A DNA stretch of 28,407 nt from Candidatus Profundicultor aquiphilus (lineage in GTDB: Bacteria > Atribacterota > Atribacteria > Atribacterales > Caldatribacteriaceae), in contig JABUEZ010000001.1 of NCBI GenBank assembly GCA_013314795.1, positions 1 to 28,407 on the forward strand, given 5' to 3'. A program made the translations under genes and the position numbers. Below are positions 10,423-20,489 of this stretch, one piece after another. Within the stretch, counting starts at the first letter, position 1; each line of letters begins with the position of its first letter. The notes beneath the pieces were generated by a model. The model searched no databases. It was given only the letters and a program-made list of their open reading frames with translations, and was not told where the DNA came from.

Positions 10423-11668
10423 AATGAGAACTCCAATACGTATCAGCAACTTTTTGCAAATCTTCCAGAATCTGGTCCATCTTCCCCGGGTTCAAAATAA
10501 ATTCTGCAAACTTATCGACCGCTTCCTCACAGATATCGGTGGGAGTGGCTTCCCAGAAGCGGTTAATCAAACGATAGTTTTCCTGCGCAACCTGCTTGAC
10601 CACGTTCTGCATGGGCACCGAGAGGAAATCCGTAGAAGTCTTCTTATTAGAAGGAACAAACCCCATGAGCTTACACCACTTGTACTGGGTCTCAGGACTC
10701 ATCCACCAGTCAGCAATCTGCAGCGCCTTTTCCTTGCCAGGGGCGTTTTTCCCCAGAAGCATGGGTGCCGCTTCATAAATAATTACCTTTCCCACCTTGG
10801 GGTCAATGGAAGGAAGGATAAACGCACCCACATCTTCCCCAACCTTAAGCCCCATCTGAATCAATTGACCCTCATACCAGTTTCCAATCAAAATCATGCC
10901 TGCTTTGCCCTGAGCCATAAGACGCGGGTAATCGGCAAAAATGTCTGTAGCAGGATCTGAAAAGTACCCCTTTTCAATCATTTCCTTCCACAGGGCGAAG
11001 ACCTTTTTGACCGGCTCGTCGGTGTACTTTGCTTTACCCACCATCAGGTCAATGTACACATCGGGATTGGTCCGAATCATAAGGTCTTCAAAATAAATGA
11101 AGGTGGGCCATCTTCCCTGAACAGTACTTCCCAGAGGAACAACCCCATTGGCCTTCAGGACGTCGCAAATTTTGATAAACTCTTCCCAGGTTTTGGGTTC
11201 CTCCAGCCCAAATTTTTTGAACACCGGAATACTGTAGTAGACAACCCAGTACGCAAGTTTGGTGGGCACACCGTAAACCTTTCCGTCAAACTCGAACGCG
11301 TCCCTGAACGCCGGGTCGTACTCATCCTTATGTTTTTCCCACAGAGCCGTCACGTCTTCCACAAGTCCGGTATCCACCAGGGGTTTCATGCGAAAATCCG
11401 ACCACCAGGTGAAGAGTTCCGGCGCCTTACCGGTAGGTAAAGCCGTCCTTACCGCAGACATGAATACATCCGTAGTGGGAAAAGGGGTCGGGGTAAACTC
11501 AATTCCCAGTTCCTCAGCACAGATTTTGGCCATTTCGGTAAACGGTGTCTGCCAGTCGGGTGCGCCCCCCTTATCGTGCATCAGAACAATTTCCTGTGCC
11601 CAGAGTTGAAACTGCAAAGCAAAAACGCCCAGAGTAACCACAACCACAAGCCACCAGAGTTTTTTCAC
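10421..11668 (-). CDS. Extracellular solute-binding protein, family 1 (carbohydrate ABC transporter)
   Basis: Start reassigned to GTG 11668 (SD GGGAGGGA). Signal peptide MKKLWWLVVVVTLGVFALQFQLWA; DGKVYGVP, YSIPVFKKFGLEEPKTWEEF, GKAGMILIGNW. Upstream of two permeases; no ATPase in the cluster. Confidence 0.92.
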   Translation of the reverse strand: MKKLWWLVVVVTLGVFALQFQLWAQEIVLMHDKGGAPDWQTPFTEMAKICAEELGIEFTPTPFPTTDVFMSAVRTALPTGKAPELFTWWSDFRMKPLVDTGLVEDVTALWEKHKDEYDPAFRDAFEFDGKVYGVPTKLAYWVVYYSIPVFKKFGLEEPKTWEEFIKICDVLKANGVVPLGSTVQGRWPTFIYFEDLMIRTNPDVYIDLMVGKAKYTDEPVKKVFALWKEMIEKGYFSDPATDIFADYPRLMAQGKAGMILIGNWYEGQLIQMGLKVGEDVGAFILPSIDPKVGKVIIYEAAPMLLGKNAPGKEKALQIADWWMSPETQYKWCKLMGFVPSNKKTSTDFLSVPMQNVVKQVAQENYRLINRFWEATPTDICEEAVDKFAEFILNPGKMDQILEDLQKVADTYWSSH

Positions 11669-11882
11669 GAAAATCCCTCCCAAAACAGATTTTTGGAAAA
11701 GTAACTACATCAATTATAAGATAAGGAAACCAATAAAATACAGTTTTTTCATTTTCTATTCTTCTCCAAAAGGAGATTTTGTGGTTTCTCTGTGACATTT
11801 CCCTTGAAGCCGGTGCCATTTTACAGTATGGTAGAGTTTTTACCAGGGAAAAGCGCAAAAAGGACCCACCATCTATGGCTAT

Positions 11883-16634: not shown

Positions 16635-18407
16635 ATGCCGATTTCTCGGGCAATCAAGCCAAACATGAAATGGATTTTCTTCCTATCCTTCTTTATTGGG
16701 ATGTGGTTTGTGTGGCAAGGCTTCGTGGTGGCATCCCCTCCCATTCGCGGGGTATGGATAGACACGAAAAGCATCCCCACAACCCGAGAAAGTATCACTG
16801 CCATAATCGAACGTCTCCAAGAAGCTCACTTCAATGCGATTTTTCTGGAATCGTTTTATAACGGCAAAACCGTTTATCCTTCTCAGTTCCTGGCGTCTTT
16901 GGGTCTTTCTCCCCAGATGGACATCTTCGCCCGGAGTGAGATTGATCCCCTACAAATTTTCCTTGAAGAAGCCCATAAGCGAGGAATGGAAATCCATGCC
17001 TGGATGCACATATTCTATATCAGTCGCAATGAACCGGGAGAACTCCTTACCCATTTTCCTCACTGGGCCGTGGTCAGTAAAGACGGAAAACCCGGTTACC
17101 AGAGCGGGACAAACTTTCTTTACTGGCTATGCCCCTTAGAAGAAGAGGTGCAGAATTTTTATCACAAGCTCCTGGAAGAACTGGCTGACCGGTATCCTCT
17201 CGATGGTATCCAGTTTGACTACTACCGTTTCCCCGAACCGACCCTTGCCGACACCTGTTACGCTGAAAAGCACCGCCGTGCCCTTCTGAAACAGTACGGC
17301 GTTGACCCAATAACCATCGATCCCCTCAAGGATGGAGATCTCAGCCAGGCCTGGATTCAATTCCGGGCAGATGGTTTGACCGAATTCACCCGTACCCTTA
17401 CCACAAACCTTAAAAAGAATCACCCCCAGATACGCCTTTCCTGTGCCGTGAAACCCCTGGGATTCCCTATAAAGCGGTATCCCGGATCGCTACAGGACTG
17501 GCCTCGCTGGGCTGAGGAAAATCTTTTCGATTTCCTTGTACCCATGACCTATAGTTCTCGCCCGGCAGAATTCGAGGGAATGCTTCTCTGGATAAGAACC
17601 TTCGCGCCTCATACGCCTCTCCTGGCCGGAATCTGGACCATGAATCTCAATACCTCCACCATTCTCGAAGAGATCGAACGAGCAAAACAGTATCCCTTAT
17701 CAGGGCTAGTATTCTTTGCCTATCCTTATCTTACCGACGAAATCATGAAAGCCCTATCACAGCGTGAACCATACGAACACGAAGCTCGAACCATCCCTTC
17801 AGTTTCTTTTTACCGGGAAAATGCTCGCACCATCAAAGCTTCCTTCACCCAGGAACCTATCGCCGTGGATGGAAAACTGGATGAACCCACCTGGCAGAAA
17901 ATTCTTTTCCAAAACCAGTTTACCCTCCTCAGCGGTGGCCCAAGCGAAAAGAAGACCGAAGTCGCCGTACAGTATGATGAAACCAAACTCTATTTCGCCA
18001 TTCGAATGGAAGATTTTCCAGAACGGCCGCTTCGCTTTGGGACAAGAGACGAACCGGTGTTCTACGAAGACTCAGCGGAAATTTATCTCGATCCCTTTGG
18101 CAACGAAGGCATTTTTTACCAGCTGGCCATAAATGGTAATGGAGGAATTTATGATTCCTTTTCCCTCACCGGACCTTCCTGGAACGGCAACTGGGAAATA
18201 GGCGTGGAACGCACCGGAAGTACCCTCACCATGGAAGTCGCCATCCCTTTTGCGGAACTTAAGGTGCAAAAACCAGAACCAGGGAGTACCTGGGGTATTA
18301 ACTTCTATCGAAATGAACCACAGGATGGACTGTTCAGTGCTTTCTCTCCTGTTCCAGGGGTATACCCTGCAGTGACACTCCTGGGAAAGCTGCGGTTCGA
18401 AAAATAG
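16635..18407 (+). CDS. GHL10 (DUF187) glycoside hydrolase-like protein with a C-terminal CBM9-like domain
   Basis: IRGVWID, DPLQIFLEEAHKRGMEIHAW, YPLDGIQFDYYRFP, QDWPRW...DFLVPMTY (GHL10). Then AVDGKLDEPTW, QYDETKLYFAIRMED, EDSAEIYLDP, LTMEVAIPFAEL, WGINFYR (CBM9-like). Hydrophobic N-terminus. Confidence 0.85.
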   Translation: MPISRAIKPNMKWIFFLSFFIGMWFVWQGFVVASPPIRGVWIDTKSIPTTRESITAIIERLQEAHFNAIFLESFYNGKTVYPSQFLASLGLSPQMDIFARSEIDPLQIFLEEAHKRGMEIHAWMHIFYISRNEPGELLTHFPHWAVVSKDGKPGYQSGTNFLYWLCPLEEEVQNFYHKLLEELADRYPLDGIQFDYYRFPEPTLADTCYAEKHRRALLKQYGVDPITIDPLKDGDLSQAWIQFRADGLTEFTRTLTTNLKKNHPQIRLSCAVKPLGFPIKRYPGSLQDWPRWAEENLFDFLVPMTYSSRPAEFEGMLLWIRTFAPHTPLLAGIWTMNLNTSTILEEIERAKQYPLSGLVFFAYPYLTDEIMKALSQREPYEHEARTIPSVSFYRENARTIKASFTQEPIAVDGKLDEPTWQKILFQNQFTLLSGGPSEKKTEVAVQYDETKLYFAIRMEDFPERPLRFGTRDEPVFYEDSAEIYLDPFGNEGIFYQLAINGNGGIYDSFSLTGPSWNGNWEIGVERTGSTLTMEVAIPFAELKVQKPEPGSTWGINFYRNEPQDGLFSAFSPVPGVYPAVTLLGKLRFEK

Positions 18408-18410
18408 CCC

Positions 18411-18463
18411 ATAAAACACCTATGGGGAGTTACCTTTAGCGGGAAGGTAACTCCCCATAGGTG
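18411..18463 (-). terminator. Intrinsic terminator with a perfect 20-bp stem
   Basis: CACCTATGGGGAGTTACCTT (18417-18436), 7-nt loop, AAGGTAACTCCCCATAGGTG (18444-18463). Followed by UUUUAU on the minus strand only. Confidence 0.75.
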
Positions 18464-18512
18464 CAAGGAGGGGATTTTCGTTATTCAGATGTGTCATTCA
18501 TTCAACTTCCGG
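18411..18512 (-). ncRNA. Candidate small regulatory RNA (~100 nt) with a CU-rich anti-SD segment
   Basis: Bounded by a consensus promoter (18546-18519) and the 20-bp terminator. No SD-led ORF inside. Contains ACGAAAAUCCCCUCCUU. No known family recognised. Confidence 0.55.
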
Positions 18513-18518
18513 AATTTA

Positions 18519-18546
18519 ATTATATAAGGGATCCATATTTTGTCAA
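18519..18546 (-). promoter_or_regulatory. Consensus sigma70 promoter with no downstream protein gene
   Basis: TTGACA (18546-18541), 16 nt, TATAAT (18524-18519), with an AT-rich UP-like tract at ~18558-18577. Confidence 0.75.
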
Positions 18547-18581
18547 TACCCCGATCAGAAATTTTTAAAAAATTTTGGAAA

Positions 18582-20489
18582 TCATTCTTCCATCTCTTCT
18601 CGAGCATCCCGGAGGAGTTTTTCAAGCTGTTCCACGGTAAGGTCGAGTTGAGTTTCATTATAGCAACTCGTCTCACCACCGCTACGAACAAAATTCCGGT
18701 AGTGAACCCGAAACACACCTGGAGCGACTTCCCGAGCGTTGTCGACCACTTCTACCCAGTAAACCTTATCATCGTAACCAAACACTTCTCGGGCACGAAC
18801 GGTTTCCTTCTCTGCCTGCCAGGCAAGGTATCGGGGATACAAATCACGGAAGGCGGAAACAATTTCTGGACCATCCCCACTCGGGGTTGTGGGTTCCTCT
18901 GGAGGCGTTGCAATTGTATCATCATCACGAGTTATATCCGATGGAGGCGGTAAATCTTTATCCAGACCTTCCGGCGATGATTCATCAATGTTACTCTCCC
19001 CCAGGAATGCAAGCATAGAACGAATGTTGGCTTCAATTTCACCCAGATTGATCGCTCCCTCAAAGGAGGACACCGGTACCACATCGCCACTCTGGAGGCG
19101 AACCAGAATTCGATAGGACACAAAAAACCGATCATTCTCTACCGGCGTCCCGGCATGGAGAATTTCAAAAGAGTAGGTATTTTGTGCCCCGTGGGATCGG
19201 TCCCAATTCTCGAGCTCTCTTGCTTTTCTTTCCAGATAACGGGAAAGAACCGTCCGATAACGAGAAAGAACTTCATCTTCCTGAGGCTTTTGATAGCCTG
19301 TGGAAAATCCCGAATCCTGAGACACGTCAGTATTTTCCATATCCTGGGACAAGTCAGAAATACCACTCCGTAGCTTTCCTTCCAAATACTGGATGGCTTC
19401 CTGAAAATCTTTGGGAGTTCCCTGGGTTTTATCTTCATTGACCAGAACCTTTTCTCCGGCCTCGTTGTATCCAAAGATTTTCCAGCTCACCTCATAGATA
19501 CCAGAAGCGATTTTCACCGCCTCACCCACCTCGGCAAAGAATGATTTCACTCCACCGGATCTGGCGATCTCAGCTTCGATATATTCCTTAAGGAGCTTGC
19601 GAAAGGAAGAAAAAAGTCGTGTTTCTTCTTCCGATACCGTTTCTGACCCAGGCGAAGGAATAGGGGTAGGAGCGGTAGTAAGTTCTACCGGAGAAGGGGA
19701 GGGTAAATTCTCCGGCTGTGGGGAAGGAGAAGGCGTTACCAGGCGGCGTTCAGCTTCCCGCTGCAGACGGGTAAGATCTGAAGCGACACCCTGCCAGAGC
19801 GCCGTAACAACAGCACTCTCTTCCTGGGCAAGAATTTCTCTTTGAAAACGGAGCTCCAGACTGCTCATCCAGAACCGATCGATCTGGGAACGGAGACGTT
19901 TTTCGAGTTTTTCTCCCAGAAGGTCTGCCTTGTACCCCTTTCGCTTGAGTAACTCCTGATACATCTTTTCCTGCACCAGGTAGTACCCACTCCATCCCAT
20001 AACGGCCGACTCAAAAGCCGTACTCTTTGACTCCTCACTCGTATCTCCCCGTTTCCAGTCGATAAGGCGCATTGAACGATAATTCCGGTAAATGGATTCC
20101 TCAAAACGGGGAATAACAACGTAATCCCGGACCACCTCGAGGCTCGTTTGATAGACTTTCACAGCGGTGAGAAAGGTCTGGAGGGGACCCGGAAGAAGCA
20201 CCGACTTCAGGTTATCGACAAAACGGTCGAAAAGCTCCAGCATCGCATCATTATCCTGAGCCGTAGCAAAAAGATGCACCACCTTCACGGCAAAGGTTAT
20301 TCGCTCTAAGTTATCAAAAAGAGACGGAGCTTCATCATAGATGAGCTCCAGAGTATCCTTGGTAAGGCCCGTCAGTCGAGATGCTTCCTCAATCACCTCA
20401 CCCCGCGAAACCTCATCCAGGGCAAATCCATGCGACGTTACGAGAAAGCAGAAAATAGAGAGCAGGACTATCGCGAGACTCTTTTTCAT
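18582..20489 (-). CDS. Hypothetical secreted protein: helical N-domain, Pro/Ser/Thr linker and three divergent ~90-aa repeats
   Basis: Signal peptide MKKSLAIVLLSIFCFLVTSHGFA; linker TPSPSPQPENLPSPSPVELTTAPTPIPSPG; own promoter and SD; 635 aa uninterrupted. Confidence 0.8.
   Translation of the reverse strand: MKKSLAIVLLSIFCFLVTSHGFALDEVSRGEVIEEASRLTGLTKDTLELIYDEAPSLFDNLERITFAVKVVHLFATAQDNDAMLELFDRFVDNLKSVLLPGPLQTFLTAVKVYQTSLEVVRDYVVIPRFEESIYRNYRSMRLIDWKRGDTSEESKSTAFESAVMGWSGYYLVQEKMYQELLKRKGYKADLLGEKLEKRLRSQIDRFWMSSLELRFQREILAQEESAVVTALWQGVASDLTRLQREAERRLVTPSPSPQPENLPSPSPVELTTAPTPIPSPGSETVSEEETRLFSSFRKLLKEYIEAEIARSGGVKSFFAEVGEAVKIASGIYEVSWKIFGYNEAGEKVLVNEDKTQGTPKDFQEAIQYLEGKLRSGISDLSQDMENTDVSQDSGFSTGYQKPQEDEVLSRYRTVLSRYLERKARELENWDRSHGAQNTYSFEILHAGTPVENDRFFVSYRILVRLQSGDVVPVSSFEGAINLGEIEANIRSMLAFLGESNIDESSPEGLDKDLPPPSDITRDDDTIATPPEEPTTPSGDGPEIVSAFRDLYPRYLAWQAEKETVRAREVFGYDDKVYWVEVVDNAREVAPGVFRVHYRNFVRSGGETSCYNETQLDLTVEQLEKLLRDAREEMEE

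Follow-up and report, generated by a model that had tools for sequence, protein, structure and literature searches.

The described systems closest to the locus analysed here are LhrC and the csRNAs, which are CU-rich multicopy small RNAs (sRNAs) that pair with ribosome-binding sites (PMC8079631, PMC3091779). The LhrC family of Listeria monocytogenes, consisting of LhrC1-5, Rli22 and Rli33-1, pairs with AG-rich ribosome-binding sites and does not need Hfq to do so; its known targets encode proteins that are exported or belong to the envelope, among them the binding protein OppA (PMC8079631). The streptococcal csRNAs carry an unpaired stretch complementary to the Shine-Dalgarno (SD) sequence and are thought to block translation initiation (PMC3091779).

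The present locus lies on the minus strand of a window of 28,407 nucleotides (the whole stretch of DNA that was analysed) from contig JABUEZ010000001.1 of Candidatus Profundicultor aquiphilus, a member of the Atribacterota. This phylum (OP9/JS1) is abundant in subsurface sediments, hot springs and anaerobic digesters, is almost uncultured, and is noted for an unusual organization of the cell envelope. A sequence-only reading of the window had proposed an unannotated sRNA with an anti-SD seed at this position. That proposal has been borne out, in that promoter, seed and covarying terminator are kept across an entire order, and the locus is very probably a real, novel sRNA gene of order-wide occurrence. 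The RNA family is new; its functional kind, that of the C-rich anti-SD sRNAs, is already known. The features of the trans-acting anti-SD class are present, namely a promoter and terminator of its own, no coding potential, conservation that is independent of genomic context, and an accessible seed.

The resemblance to LhrC lies in the multiple copies, the length of about 100 nt and a CU-rich, UCCC-containing single-stranded motif beside the terminator. In the new family this motif, UCCCCUCC, adjoins the terminator in all members, and a further UCCC or CCC in the terminator loop of many Atribacterota members recalls the third UCCC of LhrC. However, there is no sequence or covariance-model similarity between the two families, the phyla are unrelated, stem-loop A is absent here, and LhrC has three short UCCC motifs, placed in loop A, the single-stranded stretch and the terminator loop, where the new family has one invariant 13-nt seed that mimics 16S rRNA. 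Judged from its sequence, the promoter also looks constitutive and of the consensus type, whereas LhrC depends on the two-component system LisRK. The likeness to the csRNAs consists in the several paralogues per genome, each with a strong promoter and a terminator. The csRNAs differ in having two stem-loops that flank the seed, in place of the single terminator hairpin found here, and usually in an anti-AUG CAU, whereas no conserved CAU occurs near the present seed; they are also driven by CiaR, whereas the promoter here has a canonical TTGACA -35 box, and the locus has no Rfam match.

Two further comparisons had been drawn in the sequence-only reading. The analogy with RsaE/RoxS (RF01820, Bacillales) is apt as regards the C-rich seed, which in that RNA acts on G-rich SDs, independently of Hfq and within multi-target regulons. 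RsaE is homologous across Bacillales. Its C-rich regions lie in hairpin loops, whereas the main seed here is linear and single-stranded, and positions 18300-18700 gave no RsaE match at E = 10; a weak RsaJ line, which reached 14.8 bits where 100 are required, is noise. The analogy with GcvB, a trans-acting repressor of ABC binding-protein mRNAs at the start region, fails on mechanism. GcvB recognizes CA-rich enhancers, located upstream of the SD, by means of a GU-rich seed, whereas the seed here is C-rich. GcvB also needs Hfq, while Hfq (PF17209) was not found in any of the 41 Atribacterota genomes searched, four of them complete, in searches whose positive controls responded. Finally, GcvB adjoins, and is divergent from, gcvA, whereas the neighbours here are a 635-aa hypothetical gene and a GHL10 glycosidase gene.

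Promoter, seed and terminator of the minus-strand gene

The promoter of the sRNA gene consists of a -35 box, TTGACA, at 18546-18541 and a -10 box, TATAAT, 16 nt downstream at 18524-18519, both on the minus strand and both with the consensus letters, so that all 12 positions of TTGACA-N16-TATAAT (18546-18519) are matched. Perfect promoters of this type are over-represented in the genome: 17 TTGACA-N16-18-TATAAT sites were found against about 0.7 expected, roughly a 20-fold excess, and the others precede tRNAs, riboswitch-like leaders and genes. Both the excess and these positions argue that such sites are real promoters in this organism, and the promoter of the sRNA gene exceeds chance. The 17 sites also make up a useful set of strong promoters for an uncultured organism. 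Directly upstream of the -35 box is an AT-rich tract with A- and T-runs (18552-18581, minus strand), which begins just past the stop codon (18584-18582) of the 635-aa gene upstream. The same pattern of A-runs and T-runs ahead of the -35 box recurs in homologues from several families; the tract is UP-element-like in its letters and may function as an UP element. In Caldatribacterium, the promoters of four subtype A homologues (L009, L011, L013 and L018; subtypes are defined below) have their -35 box bracketed by an inverted repeat, CCCCACC ... GGTGGGG, which could be an operator; the window copy is without this repeat around its -35 box.

From the position of the -10 box, transcription is predicted to start at about 18512 (range 18516-18510) on the minus strand. 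About 50 nt of open sequence separate the -10 box from the terminator hairpin, ending in GAAAAUCCCCUCCUUGCA (18479-18462). The first part is a variable 5' region (18480-18516, minus strand) that differs in length and sequence among homologues; it opens with a conserved (C/U)GGA(A/G) motif, and the GGA start is found in most of them. This 5' motif (18506-18512 in the window, minus strand) is sometimes doubled in family members. Fold predictions for several homologues pair this SD-like 5' end with the anti-SD seed, and the motif could thus mask the seed within the same RNA, or it could be a GGA site of the CsrA type.

The terminator hairpin (18463-18417, minus strand) has a perfect 20-bp stem with 10 G-C pairs and a 7-nt loop (18443-18437), followed directly by the U-tail TTTTAT (18411-18416, minus strand). 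The RNA of about 100 nt has a predicted folding energy of -45.8 kcal/mol (z = -6.9 relative to shuffled sequences), with the 5' half largely open. The z-score, together with the covariation in homologues described below, places the hairpin beyond chance. These results uphold each of the gene signals first read from the letters: the perfect promoter, the perfect 20-bp terminator with a U-tract on the same strand, and the largely unstructured 5' half. The loop of the window copy contains a UCCC. Loops with UCCC or CCC occur in the window copy, in Caldatribacterium and in subtype A of Atribacter, though not in all members (columns 44-53 of alignment A2).

The promoter had also been said to point at no protein gene, and this is the case, as no plausible gene follows and the next gene is convergent. 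A coding reading of the plus strand was rejected: AAGGAGGGG is present there, but no ATG, GTG or TTG lies at a usable distance from it. The opposite strand of the homologues has an SD-like sequence, likewise with no start codon at a usable distance. A 12-codon ATG frame within the hairpin was also rejected, because the homologues have ATA there and the frame is not conserved. A repeat or mobile element was considered as well; BLAST of the locus against its own genome returned only the short core of a paralogue, with no dispersed repeat.

The seed, GAAAAU-CCCCUCCUU-GCA (18462-18479, minus strand), occupies invariant columns of alignments A1 and A2. Its 3' part, UCCCCUCCUUGCA (18474-18462), is invariant in the whole family, whereas GAAAAU is confined to subtype A. 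The seed is unpaired in the minimum free energy fold of the window copy, and its predicted probability of being unpaired has a median of 0.66 (range 0.29-0.99) among 42 homologues, in some of which it is partly self-paired in the prediction. In four complete relatives GGAUCACCUCCUU forms the end of the 16S rRNA, and a single base distinguishes CCCCUCCUU from the 16S tail CACCUCCUU. The perfect complement of the sRNA seed is AAGGAGGGG, and that of the ribosome tail is AAGGAGGUG. Because of this one-base difference, the seed would pair best with ribosome-binding sites of the AAGGAGGGG type.

Conservation, distribution and genomic setting

When positions 18380-18620 were compared by BLAST with 40 relatives, strong matches were found in four families, and the core of every match was the seed plus the hairpin. 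The homologues have a common architecture of AT-rich tract, promoter, variable 5' region, invariant UCCCCUCCUUGCA, hairpin and T-tail. Promoter, seed, hairpin and T-tail are present in all 42 distinct homologues that were parsed. The -35 box is TTGACA, TTGACT or TTGACG in every one of them, and the -10 box is TATAAT in 41 and TAAAAT in the other; the spacer is 16 nt long in most homologues and 17-18 nt in subtype C. Three subtypes can be told apart within the family. The seed is preceded by GAAAAU in subtype A, to which the window copy belongs, and by AAUCUUU in subtype B, while subtype C is marked by an additional upstream motif, CACCUCCU, with exactly the sequence of the 16S tail.

The hairpins of the homologues have 17-20 bp, with changes in the sequence of the stem. 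In a gap-free alignment of 32 distinct sequences, compensatory double changes occur at 14 of the 20 stem pairs. Across this alignment 97.3% of the stem cells are paired, compared with 77% in shuffles, none of which (0 of 500) reached the observed value, and with 36-50% when the partners are slid by 1-3 columns. G-U cells number 23 and A-C cells 7, as fits the minus strand, and the 8 nt after the stem hold on average 5.3 T on the sRNA strand and 0 on the other. The excess of G-U and the one-sided T-tail define the transcribed strand. Both the invariance of the seed and the covariation of the stem speak for the original proposal of an sRNA gene.

The order examined here holds Caldatribacterium, Atribacter and Atrimonadaceae-type lineages. 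Covariance model R1 finds matches in 28 of its 31 genomes (52-85 bits, 1-3 copies in each) and in none of 54 genomes from the three other Atribacterota families. A scan for exact occurrences of a 22-nt degenerate motif, with one genome per species and 185,579 species, returned 41 loci, 40 of them in Atribacterota (Caldatribacterium, Atribacter, Atrimonadaceae, Profundicultor and Sordicultor). The last locus, in Opitutia, lacks the hairpin and was set aside as a chance match. In metagenomes, all 62 motif loci have a full match to the covariance model, on contigs that are all genomic and at least 1 kb long, with none the size of the transcript. The search of Rfam that had been suggested for the locus assigned it to no known family. 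With Rfam 15 at gathering thresholds, the whole window gave only a c-di-GMP-I-GGC riboswitch aptamer at 340-423 on the minus strand (64.6 bits, above the gathering score). Positions 18300-18700, searched at E up to 10, gave sub-threshold noise (best 25.7 bits against a threshold of 139.7), and the paralogue loci gave only tRNAs. A full-text literature search for Atribacter* together with small RNA or sRNA found nothing relevant. The family is therefore a previously undescribed one, restricted to one order of the Atribacterota.

This conservation bears directly on the suggestion that no functional RNA is made and that a chance promoter-like site merely precedes the terminator of the 635-aa gene. 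The hairpin could indeed also terminate the upstream gene, a look-up of RNA runs for the window listed none, and at a homologous subtype A locus (in genome G024) the sRNA has zero contig depth in four metatranscriptome assemblies while its flanks have depths of 2-7, although standard libraries usually lose RNAs of about 100 nt and such holes in contigs prove nothing. However, four families keep the promoter, the seed and a covarying hairpin as a unit, and do so in different gene contexts, which makes this suggestion exceedingly improbable. About 300 nt downstream of the same G024 gene, a segment (L027:1035-1363) has a very high summed contig depth in the four metatranscriptomes. This segment is ORF-poor, contains short repeats, occurs in many variant contigs and has no Rfam match; it was rejected as an RNA gene, being repeat-like sequence common to other organisms.

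The neighbours of the window copy are a 635-aa hypothetical gene upstream (20489-18582, minus strand, with its TGA stop at 18584-18582), which had zero matches in a Pfam search, and a convergent gene for a GHL10-CBM9 glycosidase with a signal peptide (16635-18407, plus strand). In the family to which the window belongs, every subtype A gene converges tail-to-tail on a GHL10-CBM9 gene, an arrangement seen in four genera. The upstream gene varies by genus, being a PAS-GGDEF-HD-GYP protein gene in Caldatribacterium. The constant glycosidase neighbour raises the alternative of a cis-antisense or terminator-sharing element that acts at the 3' end of the convergent gene. The glycosidase stop codon (18407) is only 10 nt from the hairpin, and the plus-strand stem is without a direct U-tract, so that read-through from the glycosidase gene is plausible; a transcript reading past the hairpin would be a perfect complement of the sRNA, and the two transcripts might then control one another. 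Nevertheless, the convergent neighbour in other families is a dienelactone-hydrolase-type gene or something else, paralogues of the sRNA adjoin tRNA genes, and a shared terminator needs neither an invariant seed nor a strong dedicated promoter. A cis-antisense or terminator-sharing element is thus very unlikely, and the locus, with its varied surroundings, is an autonomous, free-standing gene.

The paralogue in the same genome illustrates this. It is a subtype C copy (locus L113) on the minus strand of contig C42, at about 1389-1530, and a tRNA gene with its own promoter lies directly after it. Its promoter is TTGACT-N16-TATAAT, the sequence of its terminator stem differs from that of the window copy, and it has two anti-SD motifs, CACCUCCUU, which equals the 16S tail, and CUUUCCCCUCCUU.

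Candidate targets of the seed

The sequence-only reading had gone further and assigned the sRNA a main target, the mRNA of a sugar-binding protein encoded 6.8 kb away. This gene has matches to Pfam SBP_bac_8 and SBP_bac_1, and its start region reads GGGAGGGAUUUUC-GUG (11666-11681, minus strand, with the GTG at 11668-11666). The RNA would on this account be a dedicated repressor of the GcvB type, with the AUUUUCGU extension beyond the SD complement marking the target. The pairing itself exists as described: ACGAAAAUCCCCUCCUU (18480-18464) pairs with GGGAGGGAUUUUCGU (11681-11667) through 11 Watson-Crick pairs, a bulged C, 3 more pairs and a G-U, and the duplex spans the SD together with the GT of the GTG start. 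Genes were called by a simple rule based on ORF and SD, which gave 2399, and 2376 start regions were scored by duplex energy; the 17-mer of the original proposal puts the binding-protein start in first place (-22.0 kcal/mol). The same-genus relative retains GGGAUUUUU at this start, where it has GGAGGGAUUUUU-AUG and so keeps the extended complementarity.

The top rank is biased, however, because the 17-mer was delimited after the fact by the match itself. The binding-protein start falls to rank 6 of 2376 with the unbiased 25-nt open stretch beside the hairpin, to 35 with the 18-nt family-invariant seed, and to 150 with the 9-nt core. When the anti-SD core was given shuffled 8-nt flanks, 49 of 60 trials yielded a duplex of -22.0 or better at some start in the genome, as did all 60 trials with random flanks; the match between seed and target is no better than chance. 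Apart from the sRNA gene and the binding-protein start, the genome has three copies of the 11-mer GGGAUUUUCGU, none of them at a gene start. Outside the genus, seed and target are not kept together either. Five more distant genomes, in which the start region of six gene copies was read, have only a plain SD and have lost the extension; the CG of the ACGAAAAU flank varies within the sRNA family; and although almost every genome of the order has the sRNA, the binding-protein gene turned up in just 10 of 40 relatives. Given the weak ranks, the flank trials, the lost extension and the patchy gene, the specific target claim is not supported, and a repressor dedicated to this one mRNA is rather unlikely. 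The binding-protein mRNA is a possible, though less than likely, member of a larger target set.

The wider search for targets gave a similar picture. Complements of the seed, sought as 15-mers and 13-mers in 29-41 genomes, occur almost only at the sRNA genes, and no perfect start site is conserved. The additional matches that were examined, at six places in two genomes (G003 and G005), were rejected as targets, since they lie inside coding sequence with no nearby start. A small CopraRNA-like ranking, of the kind that had been proposed as a check, compared the window's own genome (G000) with 800 kb each of G005 and G024. Candidates in the top 5% of G000 were also in the top 5% among reciprocal-best orthologues in 2 of 16 cases for G024 and 1 of 23 for G005, so that conservation of orthologous targets stands at the chance level. 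With no conserved single target, no one partner explains the invariant seed, and this is what would be expected either of a broad SD-directed regulator or of a decoy for a protein or for the ribosome.

The decoy alternative holds that the near-copy of the 16S tail titrates a factor that recognizes this tail or C-rich RNA, or that the RNA binds CsrA through its 5' GGA, with pairing to mRNA being incidental. A 13-nt motif that is invariant across the order and yet has no conserved single mRNA partner is consistent with this, as is the resemblance of the motif to CACCUCCUU, which subtype C carries in exact form as well; a CsrA gene is present, and most family members start with GGA. However, known CsrA sponges have many more GGA motifs than the one or two seen here, multi-target antisense sRNAs normally have invariant seeds too, and the partner is so far only a hypothetical factor. 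Pairing with mRNA is also favoured by the finding, described next, that seed-complementary SDs are enriched in one class of genes. A decoy is thus unlikely.

That enrichment concerns exported and membrane proteins. Among the 50 best seed-complementary starts of G000, half belong to genes with a signal peptide or membrane segment, against a background of 21.5% (p = 1e-5), while the best starts for a 16S-like control seed are 30% exported. The exported share was also compared between genes with a GGAGGG SD and those with GGAGG[ACT], and is 39.8 versus 26.0% in G000, 55.6 versus 26.5% in the first 800 kb of G024, and 37.8 versus 28.2% in the first 800 kb of G005. Over these three sRNA-bearing genomes the stratified odds ratio is 1.96 (p = 8e-7), as obtained with a crude gene caller and a hydropathy rule, with two of the genomes partial and with one small control. 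The control is 680 kb of G073, an Atribacterota genome that lacks the sRNA, in which GGAGGG starts are rare and show no enrichment for exported proteins (1 of 15, compared with 39 of 118). These counts suggest that GGAGGG-type sites favour exported-protein genes, which is a lead rather than a proof. The binding-protein gene, which encodes an exported protein and has a GGAGGG-type SD, fits this class-level lead, a point in favour of the dedicated-target model as well.

Proposed action of the RNA and its significance

The reading that we favour, with moderate confidence, is an Hfq-independent occlusion of G-rich SD sites on many mRNAs, in the manner of LhrC, the csRNAs and RsaE. An RNA of about 100 nt (18512-18411, minus strand) would be made from the consensus promoter of the sigma-70 type, helped by the AT-rich upstream element, and would end at the long intrinsic terminator, shared with the glycosidase gene that converges on it tail-to-tail. 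The working part of the RNA would be the single-stranded UCCCCUCCUUGCA immediately 5' of this terminator, which departs from the anti-SD tail of 16S rRNA at one base and should form a longer helix with AAGGAGGGG-type sites than the ribosome can. By binding such sites on many mRNAs without Hfq, the RNA would block the 30S subunit and presumably lower translation, and the subtype-specific flanks (GAAAAU in the window copy) may bias the choice among targets. Against this explanation, the anti-SD core pairs with a large share of starts, and specificity is not accounted for.

A bolder extension of multi-target occlusion, which we regard as doubtful, is a translational throttle on the whole secretome. 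In this case two or three paralogues of a ribosome-tail mimic would out-compete the 30S subunit at the GGAGGG(G) SDs of exported and membrane mRNAs, and a class of genes would be addressed through variants of the SD.

The annotation of the locus is corrected by these results, since an unannotated intergenic hairpin that would otherwise be read as a plain terminator is an sRNA element. The Atribacterota gain a well-defined and structurally supported sRNA family, for which a covariance model, a division into three subtypes and a clear seed are available, and this family provides an independent, deep-branching and Hfq-less case of the recurring C-rich anti-SD solution. Its interest rests on the phylum, on the mimicry of the 16S tail with a one-base switch, and on the possible link to the mRNAs of exported proteins. 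If the association of GGAGGG with exported proteins holds, single-base variants of the SD can define a post-transcriptional regulon.
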